DNA of 59,765 bases, the filler included, from Moniliella sp. 'wahieum' (taxonomy: Eukaryota), in the NCBI GenBank assembly GCA_003971905.1. It is 2 parts of 2 records of this genome, joined end to end, with 100 filler letters (N's around TTAATTAATTAA, not from the genome) between each part and the next. Parts side by side here need not be neighbours in the genome. Positions count along the whole stretch, not along the records: positions 1 to 29,876 come from RSEE01000179.1; positions 29,977 to 59,765 come from RSEE01000180.1. One strand, given 5' to 3'. This document shows, one piece after another, positions 1,199 to 57,798 of this stretch. The notes beneath the pieces were generated by a model. The model was not told where the DNA came from and searched no databases. It saw only the letters and a program-made list of their open reading frames with translations. The position numbers were made by a program, and so were the translations under genes. The number at the start of each line of letters is the position of its first letter. The first letter of the stretch is position 1.

Positions 1199-2353
1199 GG
1201 TGGCGAGACGTCCCAGCGGAGAAGGCGGCAAGGCTGTGGTCGAGGCAGCAGGACGGACGAAAGAGCACACAAATGGGCTAAGGACGAGACGACAAGCGAC
1301 GGACGAGGAGAGGTTGGGTCGATGGTGGATACTAGGTTGGGGGGGGGAGGGAAAAGAAGGGAAAGAAGAAAGGGAGTGGGCTGGGTAAGCTGGCACAGCA
1401 GTCGGCGCCGGCTTTGTATATATACCCACACCGACTGAATCGCCGCCGATCCAAACCTTGGCACGGCGGGCTCCAGGCGGCTACCGGCGGCACTGGGTGG
1501 TGACGCGTTGACACACTCCGTGCTCGCACTCAGTTGCTCAACGTTCAACACCAGTCTGAGTACTGCGTTGGGTTGTTGAGTGCCCACGCACTCGAACACG
1601 CAGCACTCGCCCTCCCCATCGGCCAGGGCAGGCGAGGCAGGAGAGGGCGAGGCGCAGTGGGTGACGCGTGACGCTGGTACAACCAGGCGTGGGGACAGGT
1701 GACTGTGATGGCCGGTGCCCAAATTTGGGTGCGGGACACTGGCAACACGCGCGCTGGCGGCGGCTGCCTAGCCGCGTAGGCTGTGTGCCGCCGCCTGCCG
1801 CTGCCCACCGGCCACCCAACACCGGCACCAGGTCATCTGGGCATCCAGATGGAAACAGGCGCGCTGCCCAGACTGGATGGTGCTCGATGGCGACCAGTGC
1901 CGTGCGTTTGCGAGTAGCGGATCTCGACCATCGATCAAGCTTCAAGCTTCAAGCTCAAGCTTCAAAAGGTGGAACCCTGGAAGGCACAACGTCCTGCCTG
2001 GCGGCACCCGTTTTTACCCGGTAATAGTAGAAGCGCTAAACATTGTGTGGTCAGTACTCAGTACTCAGTACCAGTCATACTGACTACTGTTGAGCCCTGC
2101 TGAGCATCGGGCCCTCACAATCCTCAGGGCTTCAACAGTCCACAGTTCCGCGAGCCTCTCTATCTGACGCTGAGGCTTATAGCTACTGTCCTAGGGCTAG
2201 TAACCTCTCAGGCACTCAGGCTGATCCCTCTAATGATTAATGAGCGATGATCGCAGGAACAGTGGAGAACGTGGTGGGTGGATACGTTGAGTCGGATCTG
2301 CGCAACTCCTGGAGACGAGTACCACAAACGCGCTTTCAAGCTTCGAATGCATA

Positions 2354-2883
2354 TGTCCAGACATCAAGACTCTCAAAAGGGTTTAAGCAACCCTGATTAG
2401 CTGTGCCCCATGGGGTACTACCACGCTCGGGCCGAACCGAACCCGCTATACTATCACGTCGAACTTATGATCCATCGAGAGTCACTGTCACCATCCACCC
2501 CTCGCTTTTCGCAGAGTAGTAAAGCCCGATTATCTCTGCTAAGCGCTAAATGTGATAGGAAAAGCCGCGTATACAACGAGCGGCCGTTCCCTTCGTTCCC
2601 ACTGACCCGCGATGGAGAGGGCTTCTGCAACTGTAAAGCAGACCAAGGGATGATGGAAGGGCGAGAATAGTGGACAAGGTATAGGATATGAAGACCGAGC
2701 CTTTCATGTGGCCTTCTTCCGTTATACCACGGCGTTTGTTACAAATATGACCAATTTATGGCTTCCTGTATAGCCCTAGCAGGCCCCACCGTCTACCAGT
2801 AATCGAGACTAGGCAGAGTCACTAGCCACTAGTCAACAATAAAAACGTCAAACCATCACCTCTTGATGCTCTCTCCGCGGACA
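2354..2883 (-). mobile_element. possible degenerate solo LTR
   Basis: Bounded by TGTCC...GGACA; the reverse complement near the left end (tcagggttgcttaaaccc) loosely resembles the subterminal aagggattgtacccttaaac of the other LTRs; no TSD found. Confidence 0.25.
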
Positions 2884-4103
2884 CTCCTTGGCCACATGGA
2901 GCGGCCTGGAGCGGCCAAGGGCGGCCATGTATAACTGGGTAAATGTAGGTACACACACTGGGCGCGTTAAGCGTTTAAGGGAACTCCAAACGTCCTCGGG
3001 GCGGCGGGTGTCTGAGGCTCGGTGCTGACTATGTCTCTGACTCTCCGCATCTCACACACCTACTATCTCGCAAGGGAAACACCCAGCAGCGGCACTGGCC
3101 CAGTGCTGCGGCATGCCGGTTGAACGTTACGTTGAACGTTGAATATTGGACGTGCCTAGAGATTTGACGCGTTGATCGATGAGCGCTGAGCCTGAGCGCT
3201 CACATGTCACAGAGCGGCCAGCGAGCGCTCGCTGAGCCCAACGTAGCCCAACGCGGTCAGAAGATCTGAATGCATTGGCAGGATCCGATGTGTGTACAGC
3301 TTTAGTTGGGACCGCAGTTTGCTGCGGGGGCGCGATCATCGATCAGCGAGCAGCGCGCAAGCGCTCCGCGCCCTAGCAATGCCACTTGTCACTTCCTTGT
3401 GGACGCCCCCGCCGCCTGTCCCTGTTGTCGATTATCTCAGAAGCAGTATATCCTAGCCACCACATGAGGTACACCAGGGCACACACCCTGGTGCGCCCCA
3501 ACAGTGGAGTGCGCCCGGCCAGGCACACAAATGGGGCCCACACCGACCCGGCGCAGAGGGTGATGCAGACACGTGGATACTTCAGCATATTGGGTTGCAC
3601 CACAGCTTGCACCTTGCGTGTCTTTGCTTACCGTTAGCCGCTTAGCGCTTAGCCGCTTAGCATCCATCAGCTCTCGATGCGGCCGGCTGCTCTCTGCCCT
3701 CTTGATCTTACATGTTACTTCTGTTACTTCTTACGTTACATGCACACAACACTGCTGTAGTTTCTCGCTCCGTTGTAAATATATCGCCGATTGCATCATC
3801 ATGTGATGTATGGCGCCCCCGTTGGGACGGGGGGTCTTCTCGCGTTTTCCGGACGTAGGCATGACACGGAACACATGACATTTACTCTAGAAAATGGTAT
3901 ATTCTGCTACTCTTTCCCAATATCCCCCGGGGAGGTGGGGGTTTGTATAAGAGACTAACAGTCATTCGCTCGTGTAATGAAAAGCAAACGAAAGATTCAA
4001 CTGTTTGACTTGTTCGTGTCTCGAATTGACCGTGGTGATCCCGCGGACTCTTGGTTTCGACGTCTAGAGCCTCACTTCATGATTGAGTCCTCTGCTCTCC
4101 TTT

Positions 4104-4109
<6 letters not shown>

Positions 4110-4143
<34 letters not shown>
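4110..4143. repeat. (CT)n microsatellite
   Basis: Direct reading of an uninterrupted CT run. Confidence 0.95.
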
Positions 4144-4146
<3 letters not shown>

Positions 4147-4734: not shown

Positions 4735-4828
4735 TCCTCGATGGTCCAACGGCTATGATGTGACGCTCTCACTGCGACGAATTGCAGGGAATACCGTCAA
4801 GACCCGGGTTCGACTCCCGGTCGGGGAA
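4735..4828 (+). tRNA. tRNA-Glu(CTC) with 22-nt intron (4772-4793)
   Basis: Acceptor stem TCCTCGA/TCGGGGA; anticodon stem TGACG/CGTCA with loop CT-CTC-A; intron at the canonical 37/38 position; T arm CCGGG-TTCGACT-CCCGG; poly-T follows. Confidence 0.95.
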
Positions 4829-5639: not shown

Positions 5640-8600
5640 TAAAATTCATCGGGCCATATGGGGCGTGAAAAGGCGGCTGGGGATTCGTAAATCTGCTACA
5701 AGAAGGGGGGTAGGTGGTGCGGACCGCCGGAAAACAAGGACGTTGAGTCGGAGTGCGAGGGCGGGGGGAAGGGGGGCAAGAGGTGAGGTGCTGCCTGAGG
5801 GACACCTTGGCCATCCTGGTCGTTGAGCAGCGTCAGGGGGAGGTAGCAAACCGAAGATGGTTGAGCTGGTGTACCCTGTGCGACGGGGCCGGGCACCCGC
5901 GCGACAGGCACGACAGGTAAGACCGGCGCAAGAGGTGCGACTCGCGATTGGACAGAAGTGACCGGAAGGACGGATGGGATCGAGGAGGCACGGGATAAGG
6001 CGCTCCTACGCTCGGTGAAAGCTGGCGAACCTGAAGCCGGGCGACCGTACATTGATGGCGAGGGACTAAAACCAGGTGGGAGAAAAGAGGTCCACTGCTG
6101 TCCGTCCAGGTCGTCGAGGGAGAGGGTATGGTGCGGAGGCGAGAGTGCTTGGGGCCCCTTGTCTCTAGGAGCCATCACACCGCCCTCCACCGTGTTGGCT
6201 AGAGTGCCGTCCTGCTGGAATTGGAGGTGAGGTCGGATAGGTTTTCTGTTTGCGAACGCAATCGAGTTGGCATGGATCTGGTTGGAAGCCGTGGGCGACA
6301 TAGGCGGGATGGGGATGGAGACTGAAGCAAAGCTCTGCAAGTCCATCCCATCCAACCCAGGGACGAGACGTGATTTGTCGGGCCTAAAAGCGAGGGCCCT
6401 ACTCCTCGAGGGCGGGGGGAAGTACAGGCCATCCAGCATTCCATCGGGATGGAACGGGGTGGAAGAGCCATCGGGAGCGAACCCATCCTCGATGGGAGTA
6501 CCGTCCGCTTCTCCTGTCTCCCCAGCCACAGGACGGGAGGATGATTCGGAAGCGGAACGGACATGTGGGTGCGGACCAATTTGCTGAGAAACCTAGCATG
6601 CAGCGCCGAGAGGTGAGTGGGGTAAGCTGCCATCACCTCCAAATGGTCGGCCGTGGAAGAGACCAGTTGAAGAATGTTCTCTTGTGGCATTAATGCGGTC
6701 AACTCGGACCTATTGAGTTTGAGAAGAAAGACGCAGGCGTAGGAGATTTGGACAAACTGAACGTCTGGTGCATAGCGAAGATGCCATCCCAAGGTGAGGG
6801 AGGAGAAATGATGCTCTTGGCCGCTTGAACGCAGCGAAGGTAGTCTGGGCAAATCAGAGGGGTGTCAGGCCTCAGGCGAAAAATATCGAGAGGGTAGGAT
6901 ACGTACAAGTGGTCCAATCGTGCGTATCACTCGGGTGGTCGAGACAATGCTGAAGCGCGAAAGAATGAAGAAGGAGAAGAGCATAACTTCCAATCATGGG
7001 CAAGCGCCGAACCATGCAGTACGCTTCCCGCCAAGTCCGTTCCGGGTCGGCATTTGCACCTTGTGTTGAAGTAAAAGGTGCTGCACCAGAGCGTGAATCG
7101 CCACAGCTGCCGCCCCGTCTTGCCCCCCTCCCCTGCTCATGATAGATGACTGCATGTCTTGATCAGGGTAGCAGGTCTTACTTTGGGCAAGGATGAGAGG
7201 GTCAGGCGGAGGAAACGGTGGGTCCCCACCAATGTATTGGCAGCTGCACTGATGGCATCCGGGGCGGAAGTGAGAGGGAGAACGGTGCCGATGTCCTCGG
7301 TGCGGTCCACGCATTCGGTTGCTGTGGACGGTGCGCGTGAGGCGATTGAAGCGGAAACCTGGGCTGTGAGCGGAGGGGCGTTTGGATCCCTTGGAGTCGG
7401 GAACCCGCCCGGGTGAATATCCTGCCACCGGTCCCACAGTGTTGCTGCCATGTGATGCGCCAGTCATCTAGTTGTTGGCCAAATAGCCCAAACACAGTGG
7501 TGAGATTGCCCGAGGGAACCTCACCGGATTCGCCAACCACATTTCCGGCAGAGCGCATGACCTCAAGGTAGCCCATTTGGCGAGTGAGGATGCGAAGTAA
7601 CTCCACCGTCGCCACCACACCCAACGTCCATGGGCGACGCGTCCGGGGCTGAAAGCCATTCGGATGCTGCTCTCGAATCACCTCGTCTTCTTGGATCATG
7701 CCGGGTTTGCCCATTACAGAGACAGCCAACGGTCCAAACAGTAACAATACAGCCAAGTGCGTTCACGATTGCGCACCTCCCAAGCCAAAGTAGGCCCACC
7801 GCGCCCCTTGTTCGGGTCTTTTCCTCTTCGGAGAGGCGAACCTTGCGATGTAAATTAAGGTCGATCCCCATCCGGAACGCGATACCTGAGAAACAGCATA
7901 TCATGTTGAAACGTTTTTGACGGCTGCCGCCAAAAGGAAAGCAAAGAAGCGCTTGTACACCTCCACTGACTTGACCCATCATGAAGAACGGTGAAGTGAG
8001 TTGGCGTGCATGAGCGTCGCACACAGGGTACCACTCGGGGCCACGGCGATGGAACTTGGATGCGACGGTGCAAATCGCTGCGTAGAGTAAGGGCGAGGCG
8101 CTGCTGAGGTACGCGGGAGTATGATACTCGTACGACAGAAAGGGGATGGGGGGCCAACGGGTAAAGTAAATCTGAAACACTCCTTAGCTTCCTCCATTGT
8201 CAAAAGGTTGCCATGGCTTGAATATGTTGCGCTTGCTCATCCCCCACATGCACCTCACGTAGGGAGATGGCGGCCATGTCGTTGAAAGAAAAGTAGGTTG
8301 GTCCTGCAACGCCTTGCGGGGGAGGAGTGCTTGAGCCGGTTGTTGTTGGGTACTTTCTCAGATGCCAGCATCTCCGTCGACTGCACCGAGTCAGATTTCT
8401 GTGATGGTTGAGCAAGGCAACGATCAGTAGGTCCCTCCTTAGAGCCAGAGGTCGCGGGAATGACCTGCCTGGTCGATCGGCACTGTGGCTGCAGACCAGC
8501 CTCGGCCAACAACCCGAATGGATCCAGCCTACCATCAGGGGCAGTGAGGGAGCGTCGGAGATGGGACGCTGGCTCATGGCAGGAGGGTACGGGACATTAA

Positions 8601-9747: not shown

Positions 9748-12700
9748 GGATAGCCAGCACGTGGGTTGGGCGTGTCGGGGATGGGGTGGTGGGGAGGGGC
9801 GAGAGGATGGGGGGAAGGGGGGGGGAGCAGAAGAAGAAATGGCTGCGGTGCGACCGACGCTGGTCAAGCGGGGACAGGCAGCACTCAGCCGATCGGCCAG
9901 GCACCTGCACATACACAGCAGCGTCTGTCTCACGTCTCCGACATACATACCATCGCCGGGACCGGTGGCCGCTGGGGGAGCAGGGCCCTGGGCCCTGGGC
10001 TGGCCAGTGCTGTGGCGCAGCCACCGCCTGCCCAGGCTGAGTGTTGGTGCCCGCTGGCGCCTCGGACGCTGAGGCGCTGAGGCCGAGGTCTGAGTGATCG
10101 ATGATCTGAGTCCGGGTCTGCGTCTGAGGGATCGGAATCTGAGGCCTTCTGGGGTCTCTGAGGTCTGAGATCTGGGCCGGAGGCTGCCAGAGTTTGGCGT
10201 GGGCCTCACGGCCCAGCAACCGGATGGACTCCCCAAACATGTAATCGATCTCGCTTCAAGCTTCACCGATCATCACCCATCCACTGCGCCTTTCTAGACG
10301 TAACCGCACGAGGGACTGACTATCGACGAGTTGCATGTTACACGTTAGGAGTTATTGGTTTTGCTACTGCTTGCTGGTGAACTGCAGTCTGGAGGTGCTT
10401 GGCCTTGGCCTCCGCGGTGAGGCTCAGCGCCAAGTTAATACGCCCGTCACCGCCTCACCGCCCCACTGCCTCATCCGTCCGCGGTAACGTTTACCCATCA
10501 AGCTTGAAGCTCGAAGAATAAGTCAGCTAAGCTAGCTAAGCTGCTGCTATACGCCATAGCTACGCTTCATCAACGTTCAGCGTTCATGCAACAACATCCA
10601 TCGTTCCACATTCAATATTCAACCACCGTCTCTTCAGCTACAATTATGTGCCCCATCAACGAAATATCGTGGGATGTAGCTGTTGTAGCACGCAACCCGA
10701 ACCAACGATTCAGAGTAAAGGTTGACACAACATAGTCACCCGGCCTTGATCTTCCCTCCTCTCTCGTCAGGCCTGAGGCGTGCACGTTCAGTACGATGTG
10801 TTTGGTAGACACGCCATTCATCATGTCCACAAGCCCTGTGGCGTATGATGTGGCAGATATAGATACGTCTGTTTCAATGTTCGGCCTCTAACCGTCCGGT
10901 CTGGGGCGGAAGGCAAAGGGCGGACGAAGTTCCACGTTCAGGGCGATGGGGTCGACAGCTGGCGCTGAAACCGTGATGCGGCGTGTGAGCGTGCGGGCGA
11001 AGAGCCCGGCTCACGTTGGTGTCCGAAGTAGAACCGACCAACGAGGAGCTCTTTCAGCTACTCCTAGTCAAGCCTGAGGCCTGAGCCTAAGCCCTGAACC
11101 TCAGAACTCGTCTGGACTCGGTCTGAGTCCTCAGTCTCAGTTGCACCTGTCGTTACATGTGACATGCAACCACTGCGACGCAAGGGGATGTCACCGGCAT
11201 GGCGGCGAAGGTTCAGTCTTAGTACGTCCGGGTCCCCCGGTACGTTGGGGAAGGGATGTAGTGGGGTCTTCTGTAGTACGGTCGCCCTGCCCCAACTGCA
11301 GAGAGGACACTCGCACGTGGAAAAGCCCATGAGCCATGTCACATGTCAACTGCCGCATGGTGTGGACGCGGTAGATTACTGCGACGGGAGTGGCCGGGAT
11401 GATTTGGCCGGCCAGTCGCGCCAGCTGCCCCGGATGCGACGGGTGAGCTCACCCGTGACCGCTGCGCCCAGAGACCGGCCGGTTGTCGGAGAGTCAGTCT
11501 AAAGCTAGCCGCGCAGGAGGATGGGAGGGAAGTGAGGGGACCAGCGTGTTGGGCAGCGGCAAGGTGCAGGATATGCCTACGGCCGCAGCGGAACAACCGT
11601 TGGGACACAGCGACGCCGTGGACGTGAAGCTTGAAGGCGCACATGGAACAAACGATGATCTCCTGTGGTAAGTTCTGCGCTGAGCGCTGACGCGCTGACG
11701 GGGCTCAGCCTGTCAGAGCCCGGGGTGCGTCTGCCCGGCGTTTTCTCGGGAAACGGGCGGCTGAGACATTTGGCCGATCGAGCACCCACCTAGTGCTGAC
11801 CTGCTCGCTCCCACAACACTATCGTATATCAATGGTACAGGAGGGAGTGCCAGGCTGTAGTGGGCTTGTTGTGCCATTACCCTGCGGACCCGGCGTATAC
11901 ATATCGTGCCAACCCGTCCATAGTAGTTCAAAGTTGTGAGGGCCCATGCACATGGCGCTCAAGCCACGCATGCCATGCAATCAACGTTCAACAGCATATT
12001 AACAGAACGCACCCTACCCTGCAGAGTACCCTCCGGCTTCGATCAGCCAGCTGTCGTATCCACTGAGACAGGGGATGGCTGGGATGGTCTTCTGATGGGC
12101 ACAACAACGACCACCCCCCTCCGTCCTCCCTCTTTACATCAATCTGCAACGGTGCAACCTTCCATGACAATGAGCCCCGGCGCTTGACCCGCTCTCAGGC
12201 TTACCGTCCGCATACCGGTGCGCTCTTATAGACTGCTCTCTTGCCAGAGAGGCTGTACCCTTCTCTCCGAAACCTGGCTGTAAGAACCAAACCCAGAAAC
12301 TGGGCCGCGGAGCTTCAGAAACAGATTCTTTTGATAATCGATAACCGGTAACCGGCCGGTTATCACGCGTATAGAAGTTTATCTCGTCAAACCTCAGGCC
12401 TCAGGTGGATACTAGTAGCCGGGGGAGAAGCAAACACCCGTGGATGCGTTCGGGCCAAGGTACGTGAGTAAAAACTAAAGAGAAACGCTAACGTGCTGTA
12501 CTATAATGCCATCAATGCATGCCAAGTTTTTCAGTGCAAGTCGCCGGTAGGCTCAGCTCTTTGTTGGCATGTGAGAGGCAAATGTGGCTAGTTTCACATG
12601 CCACATGGCCGGCAGCCTGTTGAAAAACGTGCAATCTGTTGAAAAAACCACAAGTGATGAACGCTGACATGGACATCAGCTTCTCTCCTACATCAGCACA

Positions 12701-14148: not shown

Positions 14149-16433
14149 GCGGGCGGCTATTCCAGACTAACCCTTTCGAAGCTGTGGTACATGGATCCAA
14201 AGCTCTGGAACAGCCAACGCTACTCTACAGTTAGAGCTGCCAAGAACAGGGTACAGATTTCCTCCTACGCAGCCATCTCGGAAGTATTTTAAGTTCAGCG
14301 ACTGTGATTTGATGCATGCTTTTGTGGGGTGTGGCCTGGTGTGGTTCATCGATCCTGATCAAAAGCTCTTCGTGGTGTGTGAGGTGTATATGAGGCTGCA
14401 ACACATACTCGCACAATAAGGTGGGACACGTGCCTACTAGACATCGTATCACATCCACTCTCTCCGCACCATATTTTCCGTACTGCAGAGAGAAGAACGA
14501 GAACCTGGTGCTGAACCCCCGAGGCCGACTCGAAGCCCCTCTGTTTCTCAGCGCCCTGCAGGATGGGACGTCCCTGGCGGAAGGGGCTGTAGGGGCAATC
14601 GTAGATCACATCATAGGGTGTATAGGGGCGGGGTTGGTGCAGTTTTTGCGGCACAACCTTATACGTAGGACAGCGATACGCTCGATCGTGAGGACCCGAG
14701 CAAGTGCGACATGCGACATGCGAACGCCCTCCAGAGGCCCTTCAGAGGCCCTCCAGAGGCCCTAGCCTGCCCCAGCCTGAGAGACTCGGGCGCTCACATG
14801 TCACAGACAGGCCTAGAGGGAGAGAATAGGATCCATTGCTTCATAATCAAGGGTAGCCGGTAGGGCGCCAAAATATAGAGTCAGCGCAGTCAACAGCACA
14901 TCACACAAAGGCGGTTAGACAAAAACAAACATAAAAACGCCACTGCAACCTATACTGTCGTAGGGTTGGATCGTACTATAGCTAATCATTAACGTTTAAT
15001 CCAGTACACTGATGCGCCTCTCGTTGCAACATCTGTTGGCGCCGTAAGGGCAAGTAGGGCGGGTTCCGACCGGCTACGATGACTCTCTTCTGCGGTATGG
15101 GCGCACAGCTTAGATGCCCAGAAGCTCAGATGAGAATGTCGTACCGCGCAGCTATTACTACCGCGCGGCGACGCACCCTGCACGGCGTGCGTGGCGTGTT
15201 GGCTGTTTTTCCCGCTGGGGGGCGGGGCGCCAGGCGCCCCGCGCGCCCCTGCCCCACAACCAGCCTCCACCGTGGGGGCATCGAGGGTGCTGCGACAGGG
15301 AAAGGCAACCGTAAAGCTTACCGTCCGAAGCTCAGGCTGAGACGCTGAGAGGCCTGAGGCCCTGAGGTCTGATGCAGCTGATGCGGGTGGGCGGCATCTG
15401 AAGCTCTGTGGGGCGCGCTGAGGGAGAAGGGCACAGAGCACAGATCTGGGCTGATCGAAGGGATCTAGATCTCATGCGATGAGACACTGGTCTAACCAGT
15501 ACGATCGGGTTGATCATTGGGCTCTTGAAGTGAAAAAAGTTGATCCTTTTACTGGCTTCTGTAGCACGTGACATGTGTGGTGTGTGACACCCATGATGCA
15601 TGATGCATCATCCACATCGACATCATCTGCATCATCAACATCATCTGCATAATATCATCAACATCATCTGCATCGTCGACATGTACCGTATCATACGCGG
15701 CACAGAGTGACTCAGGACTCAGTTACTCAGCATACTCCATTACCCAGGACCCAGCACCTCAATACCGGGCCTGCGCCCACATGTCTGGCGTGACGCGCAG
15801 TCCAGTGCTGTGTTAGACGGATCAGAGAGTGCCCGTTTTTTGCTGGTCTCAATCATCGAAATCAACATCCCTACCATTAACAAGGCAATCAAAGCGGTGG
15901 CTTATTCCACCCACATCATCTCCGCGCGCCATTTATACACGCCGTGCCCCACGCCCACCATTACTTCCCATAAGAACACGCCTCCGAGCCCCATATTGTT
16001 TCCTTAGTTTGTCCATATGAAGCTGAAGCAGAGGACGTGATGCATGTAATGGATTTCCGAGTGCGCTGTTGGGAGGTGTTGCATAGTCCAAAAAGAAAGG
16101 GAAACAATGAGGGGCCGTCTGGATGTGTGTGTGTATATAGAGGAAGGTTACCGTCAAAATACCCGTAATACTAGCATTGTGAGGCTTGGACCCATGCTTC
16201 TACCGTCGCTTCAACATGTCATCATGTTATCCTCCTACCAACAGCTGCTTTCTCAAATGGTTTCCCCACCAGAGGGCGGCCTTTTGCAGCCCCAAAGGTG
16301 GATCTGGCAAAAGTGTACGACAGCTACAACCTACCCACGCCACGTGTATAACGCACAAAGATGCCAGAACAAAACATGGGGGCAAGCAAGCAAACATTCC
16401 ATAAGAGGGGGCGCATGGAGCATACCCCGGTCG

Positions 16434-20566: not shown

Positions 20567-21473
20567 GGGGAGGATGGCGGTGGCGGCGGCGACGGTGGCG
20601 ACGGTGGTGGTCGAGACGCGAGAGATGGGACGAGGCGAGGCAGCTATGAGCACGCGGGCGCCAGCTTGGAGCACACGGTGGAGGAGGATGCGCCAAGGGC
20701 GGCAGTTGGCACGAGTGGCGCGGATGCTGTCGCCGCAACACTCGGCCCGTGCCCACGAGCGCGCTCCCACAGGCTATTTCAGCAGCAATCGCACCGCCCA
20801 GCCTCTCGGATCTCATCGGCTCTCAGCGCCAAGCAGCCAAGCGTCGCTGGCGCAGCTGCCTCGCCCCGGCGTCTGCTCGCTCAGGCTCAGCGCCCACACC
20901 GAGCTAGCTCGCCCCCAAACCGTTCCATGCTTCGCTGGGCACTCCCCCCGTTTGACGCCGCTCGGCCCAAGTGGTCTTACTTTTTATAACTGCCGTTTGG
21001 CGGGCAACATGTAAGCCAGGTGATAGACTCACCCCATTGCCCCCCCGAGAGCCACACGCCTCGGGCATCGGGCCCGCACGCCTCCGGCCGCCTCACGCGA
21101 CGCCCATCCCCTGTCTCCCATCCCACTGCCCCTGCTCTCGCCCTTCCCGCCCTTGTGCGGAATGAGCCAGAATGGGCCCATCGCTTTCGTGAAATGCACA
21201 CCCTGACTAGCCGCGAGCACGATCGCAAGCACAGCGTTTGGGCATTCCATTCCATGTTGTGACTCCCGCCATGGCAGCATTGGCGGCGTCAATGTGTCCT
21301 GAGAGGAACGAAGGCACTGTGGACGCCAACAGGGAGCACGCTGGGGGCCGAGAGACCGGGTATCGTATCTATTGGAAGGGTCGAGGTGCAAGCAAATTGA
21401 TCGATGATCTCACTGTTGCCACATCTGCTCTGGTTCCATTTCAAGTATTCCAAACAACGCTGGGTATTCAACA

Positions 21474-21559
21474 TCTCCGATAGTTTAGTGGCTATGACAC
21501 GTCCCTGTCATGTTCTTGGACGTTCGGACGAGACCCGGGTTCGATTCCCGGTCGGAGAG
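21474..21559 (+). tRNA. tRNA-Asp(GTC) with 14-nt intron (21511-21524)
   Basis: Acceptor TCTCCGA/TCGGAGA; anticodon stem CGTCC/GGACG with loop CT-GTC-A; T arm CCGGG-TTCGATT-CCCGG; discriminator G; poly-T follows. Confidence 0.95.
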
Positions 21560-21567
21560 TTTTTTTT
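21560..21567 (+). terminator. RNA polymerase III terminator (T8)
   Basis: T run directly after tRNA-Asp. Confidence 0.85.
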
Positions 21568-29851: not shown

Positions 29852-29856
29852 GGCAA

Positions 29857-29876
29857 TAGGGTTAGGGTTAGGGTTA
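29857..29876 (+). repeat. telomere-type (TTAGGG)n repeat at contig end
   Basis: tagggttagggttagggtta immediately before the N gap, G-rich strand pointing outward. Confidence 0.8.
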
Positions 29877-35755: not shown

Positions 35756-38700
35756 ATGGCGTCGGTATCTGCCCCCCCTCCCGGGCCCGCCCTGCCCGGC
35801 CTGAGGCCTCCGTCGCTAATGCCTTCATCGATCATCTTGTCCACCTCACCACAGCCCTCTCTCCTCGCTTGTCTTCTATATCGAAGGCTGCAGACACCGA
35901 CAACGCTCTGCCCCACCCTTCCGTCTCCCTCTACCATACCCCTCTCCCGAGCTGCCTCCCAAGCTCGATGAACTGCCACCGCCCTTTGTCACCTTCCATT
36001 CCACTGACGATGCTCGCATCCCTCTAATTGAGAGTGCCCTGCGTGATCTCTACCAGCGCCTAATGGTTCTCGAGGGAGATCAGGCTTCGCACCCCTCATC
36101 TCAAGCTTACACGTCCCGCAGTGCTGGACCATCGACGCTCCCCCCGTCCTCACCTTCCACCACCCCCGCCCATGTCTTTCAGATCTTCCACCTTGGCGGC
36201 CGCTACACCGTCCGCTGCCGTGACAGCACTCACCCGATGTCGCCGAACGCCGCCACGCGCTGCAAGTCCTGTGGTCGTCGCATGTCGACTGTGGTGCCCT
36301 ATACGGTTCGCGCGCCCCTCCCCAGAGCGAGGAGTTCCCTCTTTCTTACCCTCTCGGAATGGGCCCGGATGGGACCCCAGTTTTGTTAGCTGGTGGGGCA
36401 CGGCGACGCAAGAAGCGCACTCGTTCTAGCGCCACCCATGATTGCGACCCACAGGCTGATCCCAGCGTCAGCGGCGCGGGAGATGATGATGGTTCACATG
36501 AATATGAGTGGGAGTATGGTCAACGCCGCCCCTCCTCATCTCACTCGAATAACCAATCCCAATCGTCTGCGATGCGAGAAAACGGCTGTCCAATACTTGG
36601 TCGGGGGCGGTTCCTCCGCGCTCAATCCGAGTGTCTCTGGCCTGCGTACGGCTACTCCAAGTTCGGTACGGACTGGAGGCGATATACCCGATGAGCTGTC
36701 TGAGACAGGTTCCCGCTCTTCCCTTGCCAGCTCAGATGACGACAGTGATCTCGTTGCTGATCCTATCGAGGCTTTTGGTGCGTTTGAGCGCTATTCGGAC
36801 GAGTCAGGGTTGTCTGCCCAGGAGGAGCTGCGGCTCTCAAAGCTCAAGTGCAGGACATTGCACGTGTGTGCAAGGTGCGTTGCTGTAAACCCCCAAATTG
36901 AGACGAGTTACTGACTCTGTGATTCAATAGGCTGTTGCATTTGGTGACCTATCGCAGCACATTACCATCCCGGTTCAAGGACATGTGATGGTCGAGCTCA
37001 AAGACATCATCAATCAGATGGTCGACACGCTCTCTGAATTTACCACCGATGTTATCCGTGTCTCGCTGAGGTCGGTACCGAGGGCAAACTTGGTGGGCAA
37101 GTTCAGACCCAGGGGGTGCAGGCCGTTGGAAAGAACTCAAGGAGGTGGTAAACAAGTTAGCCATGAACCTCACCGAACAAGTACGAGGTGTCGCCACTGT
37201 CACCAAGGCTGTCGCTCGAGGCGACTTGTCGGAGAAGATTCACGTCGAGGCGATGGAGAGATCCTCGAGTTAAAGGTAACAATAACGTTATGGTCGAGCA
37301 ATTACGCCATTTTGCCAACGAGGTTACCCGTGTTTCGCGCGAGTTGGGGTGCGGGGTCAGCTGGGTGGACAAGGTTGTTCCAGGCGTGAAGGGTGTATGG
37401 AAGAGTTTGACCATCAACGTGAACCGGATGTGCTACAACTTGACTGAGCAAGTGCGTTCAATTGGTATGGTCACCACTGCCGTCGCTAATGGCGACCTGA
37501 CCCGTATCATCGACATCGAAGCGGAGGGAGAGATGTTGACGCTGAAGGAGACCGTCAACTCTATGGTGGCTCAGCTGCGAGTCTTGCTTCGGAGGTGGTG
37601 CGCATGTCGATGGAAGGGGACGTATGGAAAACTCGGGGGGCAAGCCATGTGCCGAATGCAGAGGGAACATGGAAAGATCTGACCCAAGTGTCAACAAGAT
37701 GGCTGATAACTTGACGTCTCAAGTGCGAGAGATCGCGCGTGTCACCAAGTGTGTCGCCGAAGGTGTTTTGACCGAGTACATCAACGTTGACGCCAAAGGT
37801 GAAATCCTTGACCTCAAACTTACGGTCAACAATATGGTGCGCCAGCTGAACACTTTGTCGGACGAGATTATCCGCGTCTCGGTCGAGGTGGTACAGAAGG
37901 TCAGCTCGGTGGCCAAGCCCACATCATGGGCGCTAAAGGCCAATGGCAAGTCCTATCCGATGCTGTCAACGTAATGGCATTCAACCTTACGACGCAGGTG
38001 CGGTCCATTGCGGAAGTCACTACAGCTGTTGCCCGGGGTGACCTGAGCAAGACCATCTCGGTCGACGTGCGCGGGGAGATCCGCGATCTTAAACTCACTG
38101 TCAACGCCATGGTCAAATTCTTACGCACCTTCTCTACCGAAGTGATTCGGGTCGCCCGGGAGGTGGGCACGAGGGCCGTTTAGGTGGCTATGCTACAGTT
38201 TCGGGCGTGGGCGGAACATGGAAGGACCTGACCGAGTCAGTCAACACGATGGCAGGCAATTTGACCCTGCAAGTACGACCATTGCCCATGCTACTACAGC
38301 TGTGGCTCGCGGCGACCTTTCACAGAAGGTCACCCTCGGTGTCAGGAGAGATGTTGGATTTGGTTAACACAATCAACAACATGATCGACCAATTGTCCTT
38401 CTTTGCATCAGAGGTCACCCGTGTCGCACGCGAGGTGGGCACCGAGGGACGGCTGGGTGGACGCGCACAAAAGAAGGACGCCAAGGGCAAGTGGGCAGAG
38501 ATTACAGACAATGTTAACCAGATGGCTTCCAACTTGACGTCTCAAGTGCGTGCGTTTGCCCAAATCACAGCCGCTGCGACCGATGGAGACTTCTCTCGCT
38601 TCGTCACTGTCGAGGCGTCCGGGGAGATGGATTCGCTCAAGACTAAAATCAACCAATGGTGTTTGGTCTTCGCGACTCCATTCAAAAGAACACGGCGGCC

Positions 38701-41003: not shown

Positions 41004-42725
41004 CCACTGTCGCAGGGTTGCTACCCCGTCTGCCATCCTGCTTACCTTGTCTAAGATTTTAGACCTTTACGGCCACCGCACGCGGTGCATATGTTCAAAA
41101 CATTCCCATCACAGTTGCACTGTACTGTACCCCTGATGAAGGGACGGGTGTACTAATTATTCCTCATCTTGTCTCTACCTCCTGTCCTCGGTCCAAACTT
41201 ACGTGTGTATGTCGGTCTCCGTCCTGGCTGCTCTACCCCTATCCGCGTTTCCTCTGCCTCTGTATCTTTTCGCCTGCTATGATCGCTTGGACATCATCGA
41301 TCATCGTGCTACGGGCTGATGGTTGATAACCGTACCTGTACTCTACCCGCTTTCGACACTGTCATTTTTTGATCCCAAAGGCTGTGGCAAGTGGCAAGGA
41401 TTGAACTTTGACTACTGCGCGGCGCTGTACGTCGTTTCCTGGTAGTCTCATCAGTCCCACAACTGTCCTCAAGCTTTGCGGCCCCTCACGCTGGGCCTTA
41501 GGGGTCCGACGTCTTGGTAATGACCAGCTGAATATGACCCGTTATAGGTGTTTGCATTACGAGGAAGTGCTATTTGAGTTTTTTTAGAGTCAAGGTTCGC
41601 ACTCTCCATGGTGATGAACAAGGGTGAGAGAATTAGTTTGGTGGGGAGGAATTACAAAACACCATCTTCATCTCTTTCTTCGATGACGCTGCGAATATAA
41701 CAGAGAGAAGAGAGTCTCATAAGCAAGCGCCGGCGCCCTCCATAATACGAGTCTCAACACAGGCATACTTAGTACGGTGCGACTGCCTAGCAATGGCATC
41801 GCATTCTACTCAGTGGTATACCTCTCTCTGCCTGTCTTTCCCCACATTCTGTCGGCCCTACAAGGACTGCTCCGTCTCAAAAAACCACCATCTCATTGTT
41901 CCTTTTTTCTCATGTTGTAGTGGAAGCAGCACCAAGCCTCATCTTCCCACCCACCCACATCCTCGCGGCGGGCCCATGCCCAGACGGAAAGCATGGCATA
42001 GCATTTCCTTTCAAACTGGCTTACGCGCGTTGTGCTGCCGCTTCCCGCTTCAGCGCATGTACTAGGCCAACACCGCCTTGAGGCAGCAACGCTCGGTTCA
42101 TGCCTCGCCAACAAGGTCTCCATCTCACGCTCTTCCCACCGCCCGCCCGAGTGACCCCCTGAGGAGGGGGGAGGCCGTCTTTGAAGATGTTTACAATCTC
42201 AGCTCGACGACCTTCATCCTGCGTCCACGCCTCTTCTCCACAGGAGTCTAGTGGGCTGTTCGACCACGGCACTTCTGCCGCGCCCGTTCTTCATTGCCTC
42301 GTCCGCAACCGGTCGGGGGGGTTGTTGGGCAATGCCCCAATCACGCCATCCTGCGTAACATAATCACCCCTCTTATCCGCCCGGACGCCCTCTGCTCCGC
42401 GGTACGCTCGGCTATTAAGGCCCTACACTTCTCATAGCCTCCTGTACCTCTCCTCTGGCCTCAGAACCACATCCTCCATTCTCCGATCTTCAGACGCCGT
42501 ACGCCCGACCGCTCTCCGGACCCTTTCTCGAACGCATATCGTGACGCGCGTGACGCGAAGGAAGTTGGAACTGACGCGTGAAGACGACGGAATGCCATTG
42601 TTCTGTGCGACGCTGGGAGCAACTTAATAGCGCTGAGCAGAGGCAGGAGCCACGACGGGCTGCCTATGAGAGACTGTAGGGTGCAGTGGCGCATCGGCCT
42701 GCATCGCTGCTTCGTCGGGCGGCGG

Positions 42726-43165
42726 GTTTAACGTTTAACGTTTAGCGTTTAACGCGACGTTTAAACGCCTAAGATGGACAATTGTAGGACGGCCGTGCAC
42801 CATCGACCATGCATCATGCATCATGCATGATGGTAGCAGCCCGGGACGCGTGACGTGTGACGAATGACGCGTTGCATGACGCATGTCACATGTCACAATC
42901 ATACACTTGTCACACTTGTCACACTTGTCACACTTGCCTACGGGTGCGGTCCATGGCCTTGAATGGCCTGAGAGACGCAGGACTTATTGGGTCGATCATC
43001 TCGATCATCATGACATCATCGACATCATCGCTGGGCCGAGGGCGCTGAGCGCGCTGAGCGGTTGAGCCGTCGAGAGTCGAGAACGCAAAAGCTGAGGCAC
43101 CGAGTCACCGGTCATGCATCATGCACCTCATGCTTCTCGGCTGACCGGTGACCGGTGACACCTCA
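42726..43165. repeat. dense cluster of nnTNAnn 7-bp duplication arrays
   Basis: (GTTTAAC)n at 42726, (CATCATG)2-CATGATG at 42812, TCA-CATG-TCA, GATCATC-TC-GATCATC at 42994, CATCATC-GA-CATCATC at 43014, TGA-CCGG-TGA-CCGG-TGA at 43142. Confidence 0.85.
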
Positions 43166-45554: not shown

Positions 45555-45672
45555 GGGGGTAGCAAAGGCGGAGAGCCGGAACCGGAGCAGTTGCACCCAA
45601 CCCCATATAGTAAACGGTAACCGGTGAACGGGTTTATCCCTTCTCCTGCTGAGAGACTGAATTACGACGACC

Positions 45673-46195: not shown

Positions 46196-46767
46196 GAGGA
46201 TGCTGGTTGGTTGACCCCTTTTTGGTAAAAACCCCCTCCTATCTAAGCCCCATCGCACACTGGCATAGATGCTAACAGAGCGAAGCAGACGAAGCTGCTA
46301 GAGTGCGACTTGGGAGCACTCGCGATCCTATGGATCAGCTGCAAAGCAGCCGTCAGACAAGGCGCGAAGACAAAGTAGTGATGGGCCTCAAATCTTAAGC
46401 AACGTCTGAAGGGAAGAGATAGGAAACAGAGAAGGGAGCCTGAGCGAGCACAGAGGATGAGCACTCTCTCCCTGATGAGCGGGCGCCATCAATCAACGTT
46501 CGATCAAGTTGTGGGCGGCGCACAGGAACCCTAGCACTACCCCTCGCAACGTAGTCACCGATCGAATCTCAACAGAAAGTTAACGTGTGACATGTGACGC
46601 GTGACGCGTGACGACTGAATTCACACTTTGAGCACGGTCGATTCAATATTCAGGTAGGATTCAGATATTGAGGCTTGGTCAGGCTCCTGGCTCAGCCAGC
46701 TTGACTGAGTAATAGACTGAACTGGCCAGCAGATCCACCAGGCGACCTCTGGTTGCAGCCAGACACC

Positions 46768-48641: not shown

Positions 48642-50409
48642 GGCGGGGAAACAGCACACCGGGCTGGGGTGAAGGAAGAAACGCGGTGATGCAGCTCCGC
48701 AGGGACGGACGCCGCTGGCTGGGCCAAGCGGAGCGGATTTGTCCAGGCGCGAAGACGGCAGAGGGGCAGTGGCGGGGCTCTTGAGCCCGCACGGCGCCTC
48801 AGCGCGCTGCTCAGCCAGAGCGCTGCCCGCCTGCCCTGGCTGACAAACCCAGAGCACTCGGTGCAACTGAACGTGTTGCAACATTTCGCCGTCCCCTGCC
48901 GCCCACAGCCCATGCGACACCTGAGGCTCACGTGTTTGCGGGGAACGGGGCTTGTGCATGTGATACCACGCCGTGCCCCGCCGCCCTTTCTCCACCACAA
49001 AAGTCCCGCTCCAAGCACGAGCGCTGCGACTCTGTCCTCACCGTCGAATGCATTCCCCTCATTGTCCAGGATGGGGACGCTGACCTAGCCGCAAGAGCCG
49101 GTGGAGGCGTAAGGCGTTAATAGGCTCTCCTCGATCCTTTTTGGGTGTTTACACCCCTATACCAATACTGCAAAAGCACATAGACGGCGCAGGACGGCGC
49201 TCTGCAGTGTGCCATCAATGATATCGATTGAGAGGCGAGGGGTTCATCCTGTCCGTCACGTGTAAAGTGCGAAGTGTGAAGCAGGTCAAAGACGATTTTT
49301 GGCCGTCGGGATAGCATAGTGACGAGGAGACCACCGGCCTACAGCCCCGACGGTCAACTGGGGCTTCGCCCCAGCTTGGTGCTTCGTCGCCACCTTAAGG
49401 GTTCGCATGTTCCCAATCAGAGCGGGAGGGACGGATGGTAGGACAAGCGATTATCGATTATCGGCGAGTAGTCTAGTCAAGTGACTCAAGCGTCACTAGT
49501 CACTAGCACTACTCGTCTTCCAATAGTAAATGCGGGTCCACCCATCCCATGCATCATCCACCAAAAAACAGCGCACGCACTGCCCCCCTGCGGCCCTCCG
49601 CTTTCCCAACTGCCCCCATGGCGTCACTGTGTGCGCGTAAAGTACGCCTCTGGCGACGCACAGGCCGCGGTCTCGATACAGGTCGCAGGTGAGACAACAC
49701 TGGCGCGTGCGGCGGGCCGGGAACCAGCATGCTGCTTGGGAATGAGCACTCTTGTCTCATTCAACCGCGACCTCTCCCTGACCCCATAAAAGCCTGCACG
49801 ACTCCATCTGGTCCTCTCTTTGCATCCCTGCGACGCCTGCCAACGACACACAGCCCCTGCAATGACCCCGCTCGAGCTGTCTGCCTTCTCTCGCCCCCGC
49901 CCGTCGGCCAGGTTGGCCCGCGCCTCGAACAGGCCCTGCCGCACATGGGCAAAGCCGGCAGCCTCCCCCGTCCTTGCCTTATCCCTCCAGCCCTACCGGC
50001 GCCTCCGGAGCTGTTGCGTCCCACTCCACTTCCTGCGCTAGCCCCGCTTCCGATGCCCCCCGGCCGATTTGCAATCTCTGCCACGCCGGCGCCATGCCAC
50101 CGGCGCTATTCCTCGGACGCCTGGCGACGCAGCCGCCCCACTTGCCCCATCGCCACCGCTGCCAGGGTGGTACCTATCACTATGCCCCCTCCTGTGCTGG
50201 GCAAGAGCGCGAATAAGAACGTCTTTACCACTTTTGGTGCACGGGCACCCAAAAGTCACCAAGTGAAGCATGCTCGCATGGCTAAAACCTTAACACCATC
50301 CTTTATTTCTCACCCTATCCCATGAAAATGCAGGCGCTCCCCTCTTCCCTCTATGCACCCACAACTGGGAAGCTACCCTGATCTTTAGTCCAGCCTTCTG
50401 AGGCCGACG

Positions 50410-53870: not shown

Positions 53871-54041
53871 GAACAGGGCTTCCTTTTCGCAGCAATATTC
53901 TCTAACCTCAGCCTCAGCGCTCATCCCGAGCCAAAATTGCTGTCGTTCTCTCCACCTTTGAGAAGGGCAATCAGAATCCTCGATCAGGCCTCAGGTTATT
54001 CAGGACTCACTGAGACCATTGAGTAACAATGAAGTTGCTCA

Positions 54042-54111
54042 TGAAGCTCTTGAAGCTCTGAAGCTCCTTGAAGCTGAAGCTTGTGAAGCTCTTGAAGCTT
54101 GAAGCTTGAAG
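54042..54111. repeat. imperfect (CTTGAAG)n array
   Basis: Nine TGAAGC cores with variable spacers (AGCT, AGC, AGCTC, AGCTCT, AGCTCCT). Confidence 0.9.
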
Positions 54112-55597
54112 CGCACTGAGTAACAAGTTTGAGTTAGGCGACGCTACAACACGCAAGCAGGAGTCCGTCACAGAGTCACATGCCATGATATGTGTTAAAC
54201 GAGAGCCCACGGATGGCATAGTCACACATCGTATGCATCATGCATCTGCATCTGGTATTTCCACGGGTGTTCTCGCGTGCCCCATACACCACAGCCTCCT
54301 TTCGGCGGGTCACATTTTCACAACGTTGCGATACGTGGAGGCTATAGTATGGGTGAGTGGTTTGTTATCCTCTTCGTGTATCAACTAGGCAGCATCAATC
54401 ATCCGATTCTCTTCGGACTATGGGGCAGCGATGCATGATGCATGATGATATTGCATTTTGACTTCGTACTTGGCACTTTGCGCTGATTAATGATTGCGCG
54501 TATTGCTCTCTGCCACCAGCAAAACTCTCTCCCTTTCAGTTTCCTCGCAAGTCTTGTTTTGCACGCTGTGCTAGATGCCACACACGGCACGGCCACCAGC
54601 GTCTCGTTGAATGTCAGACCAGACTTGAGGCCGGCCTAAGGCCTAAGGCCTAAGGTCGGTTGTGATCGCATGAGTAAGGATGAGTGAGTTGCAGCGAAGT
54701 GGACGCGTTGGTGTTGTGGTCGCGACCCAGGAGGGGAAGGACAGCAAGGGGGGCAGCAGGCCACAAGAAAAACTGGAACGTGCTATTCCCCGCGCCTGCG
54801 GCTGCCGGCGCTCGGCGGGCAGTGTGGAAGGGTTGATCGTCCGGCAGGTGCGACATGTGACATCCATTGCACCCTGTCGATCCTCCCCCTTGCTGCGCTC
54901 GCACTCGCTGGGGCTCCGGAACACTGGCATGCCGAGCTGTGGAATGCGGGGTTGACTGGCGGGGGGCGGTGAGCCCCACACACTGGCCGTTTGCGGCACC
55001 TCTGCGACGCGGGTAAGGCCTACGGCGGCTCAGAAGCGCTGAGCAGCTCAGGTTTGTAGTGGGCTAGGCGCTACCGTTTGCCTGGACGTGCTACGGACGT
55101 TCAGCTTATAGCGCGGCTGAGCTCAGCCTGAGCACGCAGCAGGCCGCCGCACGGGGTAGCTGCTGCTGCGGAATGGCGGGGGGTATAGAGATGGATGTCC
55201 ATTGGGCACACAACCCCCGTGCCAACCTCCCTGCGCACCCAATCACAGCCAGCATTTGCGGTTGCGGCAGCTGTGGGGCTACAGAGACCAACTGGCAGCC
55301 GGGAATGCAGACAGCCTGTACCCAGACAGTAGTGGCACCATGCATGCATGATGCACCACGGACGATCGATGATCCAGTGGGCCACATGTCAGATGTCACA
55401 GGCCATACAGCACCCCCCCGTTCCAGCCTGCAGCTCTTGGCCCCGCTCTCTCCCCTTCTTTTCTTTTCTTCTCTTCCACCACCACCCCCATCGTCCCCTC
55501 CCCCCGCTCGCACACCTCGCTATAAGAGACGTGCTCCTTTTCCCGTCTGTCTCCAACACACACCATCTTTTAACAACCTTCTTTTCTCCAATCTCCA

Positions 55598-56785
55598 ATG
55601 AAGCTTGGTGCCCTCAGCGTTGCAGCTGCCGCTGCCACCCTGGTTGTGGCTGGCGGCGTGCGTGATGCCAAGCGGGCATGCGCCGCCACCATGGCATGGT
55701 CAAGCAAGTCCGCTCGAGTTCTTCCGACTCGTCCGATTCCGGCTCTTACTCTATTCTGGCTTACTCCGACTCCATCCGCTCTTCCTCCGGATGACTACTG
55801 TGCCTAAGAACGGTCTGGCCTGGCCCAACGGCCCTTGGCTCAACATCCAGCAGTACAAGAAGACCATGGGCTGGATGTACTCATGGGACGCCACACCCGC
55901 CACGGGCCAGCCCAGCGGCGAACTTTGTTCCTGAGTCGATTCAGTTCTACCCTATGCTCTGGGGAGGCTCATCAGACCGAATTGCCAACTGGAAGAAGCA
56001 CGTGCTGAACAACCGCAATGCGTCTCAGAACAGTGCCAAGGTAGCCATGGGCCCCAACGAGGTGAACCAGCAGGGCCAATCCGACATGAGCGTTCCGGAT
56101 GCTTGCGACCTAATGCGTCAGTACATTGTGCCCCTGCACGACCAGGATGGCTGGACCATCATCGGCCCCTCTACGAATGGCGCCCCCAATGGAATTGACT
56201 GGATGAAGGAATTCCAGACCGAGTGTGCTGACGTTGGAACAAGGTACGCCTTCTTCTAGCCTTGAAATACACTTATTGCCGTTGAGTTTGACACTGACTT
56301 GAATGCCCCCTTCTCAGATTTCTTCTGATTCGCTCCACTACTACGGTACGGATCCGGAGAAGGCCATGAATACTTCAAGCTGTGGCACCACACTTCGGTA
56401 AGCCCGTTTACATTACCGAGACGGCCTGCATGAATTACGACGACGGTCGGCGCCTAGCCTCAGACGCGTACAACTACGTTGAGAAAGTTAACCAGTTTGC
56501 CCAACAGACCGATTGGGTCAAGGGTATTGCATTCTACGGAACTATGAGAACCTCAACATCAACCATGTCAACCGTCTCTCTACCAACAACGGAAGCCCCA
56601 CCGACCTATTCAACTTTTGGATCGCCCACACCCATCAACAGCAACGTCGTGAACAAGGGTTCCGCCCTGTCGTACGCCGCCCCTCTTACATCTGCTCTCT
56701 GCGCTGGACGCCGACTCTCTTTTCTTTCTTATTGTCGCCTGCCCCCCGCGTTTTTCAGAGAGAGGCGCATCGGATCTCAGGCTGA
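55598..56785 (+). CDS. secreted glycoside hydrolase family 128 (Asl1-like beta-1,3-glucanase); introns; 3' end approximate
   Basis: Signal peptide; KNGLAWPN, WMYSW, FYPMLWG, MGPNEVNQQGQSDMS, DWMKEF, LHYYG, FGKPVYITETAC, WVKGIAFYG. Confidence 0.9.
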
Positions 56786-57798
56786 TGGATCTCATATTTT
56801 CCTTTTAGTATCTGTTGCTGTAACTATCATTGGGCAGGCTGTACTCAAATATGTTGTTCACCGTCGTCCCGTAAGAGCTTCTTACCAAAAAACATCTGCT
56901 AGGTTTTAGCATTACTTCTTTTTTTTGCTGTGGCAATAGAAAAAAGAGAGGCACAAGAAGGGGAGTTGCGCGCTCTATATGAACTTGCGGGAAACGCAAC
57001 AGGAACCGTATCTCCAACTTCACGTAATGGCCTCTTGGCGCAGCGGTAGCGCGTGAGATTCCAGTAACAGGTATCCTCAAGGTCATCCGTTCAAATCGGG
57101 TAGGGGTCATCTTTTTTTCGTTCATCGATGACTTAAGCCTGATGACAACTATAGCTGGAATCGTATGCATCTCGTGCGCCACTGCTACGCCAAGACGAGC
57201 CCGCCAACTGTACAACGTCTGGAAAATCCACACATATAGGGCCCTCCCATGCGGAGACAAGGCAATACTTCTAGCTCACATGCACAGTGAGCACCTAATG
57301 TCGATCTGTGGGATTCAGATATTCAGTACTCGCAACATCATGCATCACTGTACTCAGTCAGGGGGGGTGAGATGATCATCGTCATCATCTGCATCATCGG
57401 CAGGTGGAACCCGAAAACCTACTATCGAGATGGTCTCCATGGCTGCCGGCCATGTTGTGGATCAAACGATGGGAGAATTGGATGCGGGACTGGGAACCGA
57501 GGCGATGCAAGCCCCTCCTGGACGGAGATGCCGGAGGGCATGCTACGCAAACGCCCCTACTGTGGCCAGGGGTCAGGGGTCAGGATGCAGCACGGGGGGA
57601 GTGCTACGGCCCCCCTGCGCGTTTCTGCTTGGCACGGACCACACCGCCGCAAGCAATCTTCAGCCATACCAGGGTCGTGTGTGGGTGGGCAGCATCGCCC
57701 CCCCCCCCCTCGCCTCCTGGCCTCAGGCCCCTCGTCCCGTAGCTGCCCGCCCCCAGAGATAGCCCCCGTGCGTTTTTGCTCTCTGTGGTTTTTGTGTT

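Follow-up and report, generated by a model that had tools for sequence, protein, structure and literature searches.

The DNA considered here is a stretch of 59,765 nucleotides from Moniliella sp. 'wahieum' (assembly GCA_003971905.1), hereafter the window, along which we noticed many short arrays built on a T-N-A triplet (TNA, N being any base) that recurs every seven nucleotides. The window has a G+C content of 57%, and the genes recognised in it with Pfam are of fungal type: PTH2, an HLH factor, EMG1/NEP1, a hybrid histidine kinase with HAMP repeats, a redoxin, COX4, a glycosyl hydrolase and PEPCK. Identity of the PEPCK fragment to its counterparts in Malassezia, Tilletia, Ceraceosorus, Tilletiaria, Violaceomyces and other basidiomycetes is 62-68%, with no closer match, and, judging from this sequence, the host is a basidiomycete, probably near Ustilaginomycotina. 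Two unrelated contigs make up the window: the left one ends at a telomere, (TTAGGG)3.3 at 29857-29876, beyond which 44 N, TTAATTAATTAA and again 44 N (to 29976) form an artificial linker with stops in all six frames, of a type employed in concatenating contigs. A fragment of a class II tRNA synthetase (29325-29861, minus strand) adjoins the telomere.

The arrays obey a precise rule. Within the window, 10-mers of the form TNA-N4-TNA with a palindromic spacer were counted 70 times, against 2.4 +- 1.5 in 100 dinucleotide shuffles, and they represent 70 of all 125 TNA-N4-TNA 10-mers, where the expectation of one palindrome in 16 spacers amounts to about 8. The remaining 15 cores of the form aNb, including ANT, CNG and GNC, showed 2-11 palindromic spacers for 1.8-6.2 expected from the shuffles. 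Only spacers of 4 nt are enriched in palindromes, since for lengths of 2, 6 and 8 nt we found 5, 3 and 0, with 7.5, 0.4 and 0.2 expected, respectively. Perfect tandem duplications with a period of 7 are also in excess, by 12-fold (41 against 3.4 +- 2.4 in 30 dinucleotide shuffles), and 27 of these 41 have a unit made of a 6-bp palindrome and one further base. This palindrome is A-NNNN-T in 26 of the 27, which is the TNA triplet plus a 4-nt palindrome seen in another register; a microsatellite arising by slippage alone would have no such constraint on its unit and would consist of direct repeats only. The 70 10-mers use 13 of the 16 possible 4-nt palindromes (AATT, TATA and GATC are absent) and all four bases at the centre of TNA, with a mild preference for C or G (57 of 70, against 69% of background TNA triplets).

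The sequence of the palindrome is dictated by its surroundings. In 60 of the 70 cases one half of it repeats, in inverted form, the two bases adjacent to TNA: the two bases after the triplet alone (xy) are matched in 26 cases, the two bases before it alone (y'x') in 18, both in 16 and neither in 10. The 16 cases in which both flanks match are the arrays, and the two one-sided, mirror forms are about equally frequent, as a symmetric site would give. An unbiased scan of both strands for any five-base word followed by the reverse complement of its last two bases and then by the word again, i.e. W5 + rc(W4W5) + W5, retrieved 111 matches, 76 of which start with TNA. When the units are read in a 4+3 register, A occupies the second place in 87 of 97 matches and T precedes 65 of 75 first units, so that T and A are part of the site and not merely a product of the process. 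The bases that immediately precede and follow TNA are complementary to each other in 13 of the 44 one-sided scars, which is about chance; there is no requirement beyond T-N-A.

The product can therefore be written as pqTNAxy becoming pqTNAxy-y'x'-TNAxy or, in the mirror form, pq-TNA-q'p'-pq-TNA-xy, where primes denote complements, and the net insertion is always 7 nt. Counting both strands, 60 of 68 chains hold a single inserted unit. The arrays thus follow one construction rule rather than a single motif, and they are best read as mutational scars. The original prediction had described such TNA-palindrome arrays in the window, and all 13 positions that it gave hold them within 2 nt, namely 1935, 2051, 3640 (at 3642), 10612, 12342, 12394, 42728, 42814, 46595, 46643, 49451, 49494 (at 49493) and 54637. 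Its further statements on their grammar, namely that at least a dozen of the 16 palindromes occur, that the spacer usually derives from the flank and is not a fixed motif, and that the period is about 7 bp, are borne out by the counts given above, the period being exactly 7. The control that it called for, a comparison with shuffled sequence and with other cores such as ANT or CNG, clearly favours TNA.

We then classified the joints, taking TNAxy as the anchor and letting k palindromic bases be gained and j bases be lost from the second copy. The +7 product TNAxy + y'x' + TNAxy accounts for 76 12-mers, compared with 0.3 in shuffles, a dominance that is biased by the fact that scars breaking the rule escape recognition. 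Products of +5 were found 3 times for 4.5 expected, and those of +8, +9 and +11 not at all, whereas two partly overlapping +6 classes gave 8 and 15 matches, against 1.2. A variant in which the centre base of the second triplet is complemented, TNAxy-y'x'-TN'A-xy, also adds 7 nt and occurs 5 times, against 0.3. Simple 3-bp duplication, considered as an alternative origin, was rejected, since the +3 product TNATNA is not enriched (47 against 36.9 in shuffles). When gains and losses are tabulated for both sides (a bases for the left flank, b for the right), enrichment is confined to the diagonal a + b = 0, i.e. a palindromic gain on one side is always offset by an equal loss on the other. This diagonal fits the nicking of hairpins, because nicking shifts bases between strands.

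The 70 10-mers merge into 58 loci, 33 in the left contig and 25 in the right one, in about 60 kb. In line with the original prediction, the loci avoid coding DNA: none of the 58 falls in an open reading frame (ORF) supported by Pfam, although such ORFs make up 14.5% of the window and contain 13.6% of its TNA triplets (binomial P = 2e-4), and 8 of 58 lie under ORFs of at least 200 aa, while these ORFs cover 36% of the window. On a rough gene map, the blocks that are rich in loci hold the 5' ends of genes (1.5-3.7, 10.1-12.4, 21.4-22.8 and 33.2-35.8 kb, and further 42.6-43.2, 46.6, 49.5 and 53.9-54.7 kb), and no loci are present in the two longest apparent 3'-3' spacers of these rough gene models (24.5-26.7 and 44.1-45.7 kb). 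The scars are found in all states of preservation. With 0, 1 and 2 violations of the rule, 76, 112 and 270 matches were obtained, against 0.2, 10.7 and 145 in shuffles, and several of the one-base departures resemble CpG to TpG changes; such graded decay is as expected for unselected scars of many ages.

The gene map was drawn from ORFs and Pfam matches and is rough; a self-trained codon model dropped even the PEPCK ORF and was discarded, a drift that is probably due to an indel-rich assembly. In PEPCK, which is conserved and single-copy, the frame changes about ten times within 58.95-59.7 kb (58950-59700) while similarity to the amino acid sequences of homologues is kept, which points to an assembly full of single-base indel errors here, a very young pseudogene being less likely. 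A similar break-up into many overlapping ORFs is seen in the histidine kinase gene (about 35.3-41.0 kb), and near the start of PEPCK (58490-58590) there is a 21-residue insertion relative to homologues, resembling a short intron that is read through without a frame change. Indel errors cannot produce the TNA grammar, but they weaken the ORF masks, may have generated part of the +6 variants and will have concealed some scars. The main loci and arrays are listed in Table 1.

Table 1. Loci and arrays that follow the TNA rule in the window, and two exceptions to it (numbers after brackets are copy numbers)
Position	Strand	Feature	Remarks
1538..1549	+	Single clean scar TCAAC-GT-TCAAC	Presumed original site gcTCAACacc; worked example for the hairpin model
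1538..3717		Cluster of 12 loci	In a gene-free block
1935-1965		(TCAAGCT)4.6	Within 1538..3717
2051-2075		(TCAGTAC)3.7	Within 1538..3717
3173-3215		Mixed chain TGA-TCGA-TGA-GCGC-TGA...TCA-CATG-TCA	Within 1538..3717
3626-3661		(GCTTAGC)5	Within 1538..3717
6865..6874		Lone scar TCA-GGCC-TCA	
9983..10000		(GGGCCCT)2.6	Exception: same build, C-N-G core
10095..12405		Cluster of 11 loci	
12335-12362		TAA-TCGA-TAA-CCGG-TAA-CCGG, then inverted copy CCGGTTA	Within 10095..12405
14794..15608		Three loci: TCA-CATG-TCA, TTA-ACGT-TTA and a (CATGATG) array	
21398..22759		Cluster of 6 loci	Upstream of the HLH gene block (minus strand)
30972..30981		Lone scar TGA-GTAC-TGA	First on the right contig
33224..35834		Six loci	Upstream of the hybrid histidine kinase gene and at its start
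33896-33930		(TGAAGCT)5	Within 33224..35834
41294..43159		Seven loci	Between the histidine kinase and redoxin genes
42726-42754		(GTTTAAC)4.1	Within 41294..43159
42808-42832		(CATGCAT)3.6	Within 41294..43159
42882-42897		(CATGTCA)2.3	Within 41294..43159
43142-43159		(TGACCGG)2.6	Within 41294..43159
46583..46652		(ACGCGTG)4.4 led by TGA-CATG-TGA, plus TCA-ATAT-TCA	
49448..49511		(CGATTAT)2.3 and (GTCACTA)3	Between COX4 (minus strand) and a plus-strand ORF
53914..54655		Six loci	
54037-54112		Long imperfect CTTGAAG array	Within 53914..54655
54430-54447		(GATGCAT)2.6	Within 53914..54655
54633-54655		(GGCCTAA)3.3	Within 53914..54655
57338..57347		Lone scar TCA-TGCA-TCA	About 900 nt upstream of the PEPCK start
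57567..57584		(CAGGGGT)2.6	Exception: plain 7-bp duplication of ggTCAgg, no palindromic joint

Simple repeats that lie outside the TNA rule are also present in the window: (CCTCT)22 at 24042-24154, (GGATTG)13 at 9440-9519 and (CT)17 at 4110-4144. Three ORF-bearing copies that are 70-81% identical and have no Pfam match (13719-14150, 45672-46161 on the minus strand, and 53593-53871) probably form a small paralogous gene family; they were considered as a means of dating the scars and set aside, being too diverged and ORF-bearing.

The geometry of the scars suggests how they arose. The palindrome is centred immediately after y or, in the mirror form, immediately before p, so that a DNA end would have stopped there and folded back. 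The two palindrome centres coincide with the two borders of the 7-mer pqTNAxy, and the simplest way to obtain this 7-mer in either flank is a 7-bp target duplication around an inserted element. We favour, with modest confidence, the reading that the arrays were left by the excision of a cut-and-paste element whose target duplication is 7 bp long and centred on TNA; its flanking hairpins would have been opened 2-3 nt off the tip and the overhangs joined in register. Two features known from excision footprints are in fact seen here: the copies of the target are kept, as TNAxy repeats at a distance of exactly 7, which is compatible with a 7-bp pqTNAxy duplication, and the joint carries palindromic (P) nucleotides templated by the flank in 60 of the 70 palindromic spacers. 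As to the length of the duplication, the original prediction offered two forms, of which the 7-bp TNA-centred one agrees with the pattern that a hairpin and P-nucleotide model predicts, while the 9-bp one, trimmed on each side, finds no counterpart in the counts (6-nt spacers 3 against 0.4, +9 products 0).

In the mechanism that we propose, a DNA transposon would insert at nnTNAnn and duplicate those 7 bp, and upon its excision the transposase would leave each flank as a flush hairpin, which a host nuclease would nick 2-3 nt past the tip. A nick three bases past the tip would produce 3' overhangs of equal length, A-x-y-y'-x'-T on the left and A-q'-p'-p-q-T on the right, with the 5' ends equally recessed, to the centre base of TNA. 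The overhangs could then pair in register through their terminal A:T and T:A, filling the gap exactly and allowing both nicks to be sealed, and neither trimming nor synthesis would be needed, as the terminal pairs adjoin both nicks. A nick at 2 nt would lead to an identical sequence, with no paired base at the nick, and nicks at 4-5 nt from the tip would generate the N' variants. The resulting heteroduplex would carry TNA-xy-y'x'-TNA in the top strand and the mirror scar in the bottom strand, and replication would segregate the two forms. Since each scar would contain two TNA sites, re-insertion or slippage could extend it into a 7-bp array.

Applied on paper to the scar at 1538 (gc-TCAAC-GT-TCAAC-acc), the hairpin model reproduces the observed sequence, and joining in register explains the constant +7, the symmetric core, the similar numbers of the mirror forms, the scarcity of further joint types and the existence of the N' variants. 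A hairpin offset by one base, as in Hermes, was discarded, since on paper it predicts a +6 product with a non-palindromic joint. The plain duplication at 57567..57584 would be expected from a hairpin opened flush. As a general course of events, the repeated insertion into one site that the original prediction assumed is not supported, given the single unit of most chains and the one-sided templating of 44 of the 60 flank-templated cases; the longer arrays could have grown by slippage.

These features invite comparison with known hairpin-forming systems. Canonical hAT elements have an 8-bp duplication with the consensus nTnnnnAn, and here the period is 7 and T and A stand two positions apart. 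Moreover, the centre of hAT palindromes is the complement of the nucleotide adjoining the element, whereas here it lies exactly at the end of the 7-mer, as for a flush hairpin, one product dominates and the scars are fixed at about one per kb. Transib duplicates 5 bp at GC-rich targets, and off-tip nicking of hairpins of the RAG type gives P nucleotides derived from flank bases. Nibbling and N addition lend diversity to RAG joints, in contrast to the scars described here, which have no diversification and a TNA core. According to the parts of the literature consulted, flush flank hairpins upon excision are documented for hAT, Transib, RAG and a MULE (PMC5499845), off-tip nicks that make palindromic additions being common to V(D)J and Transib (comparison in PMC5499845), and hairpins, P nucleotides and end joining are documented for hAT, Transib and MULE excision (PMC5499845, PMC5873905). 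With Ac/Ds in plants, Saccharomyces cerevisiae and Candida albicans, the scars share a duplication kept at the empty site and inverted copies of the flank at the joint, which in Ac/Ds arise when the flank hairpins have been opened by a host nuclease and the ends are joined (excerpt of PMC5873905), a course that would also apply here. The same excerpt gives 28 footprint types among 128 revertants for Ds in C. albicans and palindrome arms of up to 20 nt in budding yeast (PMC5873905).

Elements that duplicate 7 bp do exist in basidiomycetes, namely hAT7 in Pucciniales and Kyakuja (KDZ) in Agaricomycotina; they are cut-and-paste elements of the same phylum, which resemble the proposed one in duplication length, and the excerpted account describes no excision scars for them (PMC12730594). 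Neither occurs in the window. PIF/Harbinger and IS5-type elements share the T-N-A target, with 3-bp TNA/TWA duplications and mostly precise excision (excerpt of PMC4561436), and differ in that a 3-bp duplication should leave TNATNA, which is not enriched here (47 against 36.9). The mobile T1, KDZ and CMC elements of Cryptococcus are described without excision scars in the excerpts concerned (PMC9942834, PMC12810828), and the palindromes of PMC7218506 are mitochondrial and unrelated to the TNA scars.

Several observations weigh against excision by such an element. No transposase domain was found with Pfam in the 120 ORFs of at least 130 aa or the 196 ORFs of 85-129 aa of the window, as the original prediction had noted from inspection, and a search of the window for terminal inverted repeats with target duplications gave five pairs at chance level, none of the TNA type. 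Pairs of CTCACTG, CACTG or CACTA with their reverse complements and 7-8 bp duplications are likewise absent from the window, so that for this DNA the transposon is something we infer. At 21398-21415, the scar TGA-TCGA-TGA-TC is directly adjoined by CTCACTG; no partner end was found, and this may be a coincidence. Joining in register, a step that we propose tentatively, gives no reason for T..A alone, as ANT, CNG and GNC pair equally well; these cores are not enriched, so that selection of the core by repair alone was rejected and T..A must reflect a target preference of the enzyme. End joining is expected to leave a spectrum of variable P lengths and nibbling, and known hairpin footprints are heterogeneous, while here one product dominates (76). 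To our knowledge, 58 loci in about 60 kb also lie far above the density of any known transposon footprint, and a 5-bp duplication with one-sided P nucleotides yields an identical product.

The density, the uniformity of the product, which exceeds that of known transposon footprints, the clustering of the loci in 5' intergenic blocks on the rough gene map and a window without the element could all be understood if an element-free or domesticated nuclease that forms hairpins as Kat1 or RAG do, or a different break-repair activity, acted at TNA in open promoter DNA. Fungi are reportedly able to domesticate a hairpin-making hAT transposase, Kat1 being the precedent. We consider this rather unlikely, given that a break in an unduplicated site would not by itself give a duplication of 5-7 nt, of which a prior target duplication is a simple source for TNAxy, and that we know of no nuclease of this kind that cuts at TNA. 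An element of the hAT5 or Transib type that duplicates the five bases TNAxy, with two P nucleotides always taken from the flank ending in xy and none from the TNA flank, would describe the product literally, as a 5-nt direct repeat plus two inverted bases, and Transib combines 5-bp duplications with flush flank hairpins. Families of hAT5 with 5-bp duplications are cited in the excerpt of PMC12730594. Such an element would require an asymmetric target and one-sided processing of the hairpins, and it is unlikely in view of the joints: the complementary class TNAxy-N'A-TNAxy is not seen in the unbiased table, the other P lengths are not enriched (+5, 3 against 4.5; +8 and +9, 0), and both mirror forms occur at a symmetric TNA core, for which a symmetric 7-bp duplication needs no extra assumption.

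Errors of replication, i.e. template switching or fold-back synthesis at TNA with re-priming, followed by slippage of the quasi-palindromic units, would be in keeping with palindromic units able to fold, with arrays of 3-6 units and with the 12-fold over-representation of period-7 repeats. They would nevertheless demand two template switches on 0-1 nt of homology and an exact product; ANT, CNG and GNC fold equally well and are not enriched, the palindrome stems from a single flank in the one-sided cases, and an inverted copy cannot come from slippage alone, which makes this origin quite unlikely. Finally, the mostly 5' intergenic position and some units with half sites resembling those of bZIP factors or E-boxes would suit arrays of binding sites of dimeric transcription factors selected in promoters. 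Thirteen palindromic cores and all four central bases, with no fixed motif past T-N-A, a palindrome that copies whichever two bases flank TNA and the graded decay series render selection for such sites very improbable. Returning to excision, it can be tentatively proposed that one cut-and-paste system, either an element with a 7-bp TNA duplication or a domesticated transposase, hit about one promoter-proximal TNA per kb of the genome and left deterministic +7 scars by in-register ligation.

Excision footprints with P nucleotides belong to a known class of mechanism. What seems to be novel is the 7-bp form centred on TNA, with its uniform product, its density and its seeding of heptamer arrays; full-text literature searches, whose coverage leaves out most subscription journals, turned up no description of such heptamer scars on a genomic scale. 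Footprints have usually been studied at a single reporter locus and are regarded as rare and messy, and here one exact type is apparently fixed at 58 places in 60 kb. If our reading is true, such scars would make thousands of naturally formed hairpin-repair joints available as data and would reveal a deterministic joining mode that always adds 7 nt, as well as a source of new microsatellites and of turnover in promoter sequences. They would also point to a transposase, either domesticated or of unusual activity, in a basidiomycete lineage that has been little sampled and, with it, to an undescribed genome-wide writing of new DNA, in which heptamer microsatellites are seeded in promoters and a readable fossil record of hairpin processing is left behind.

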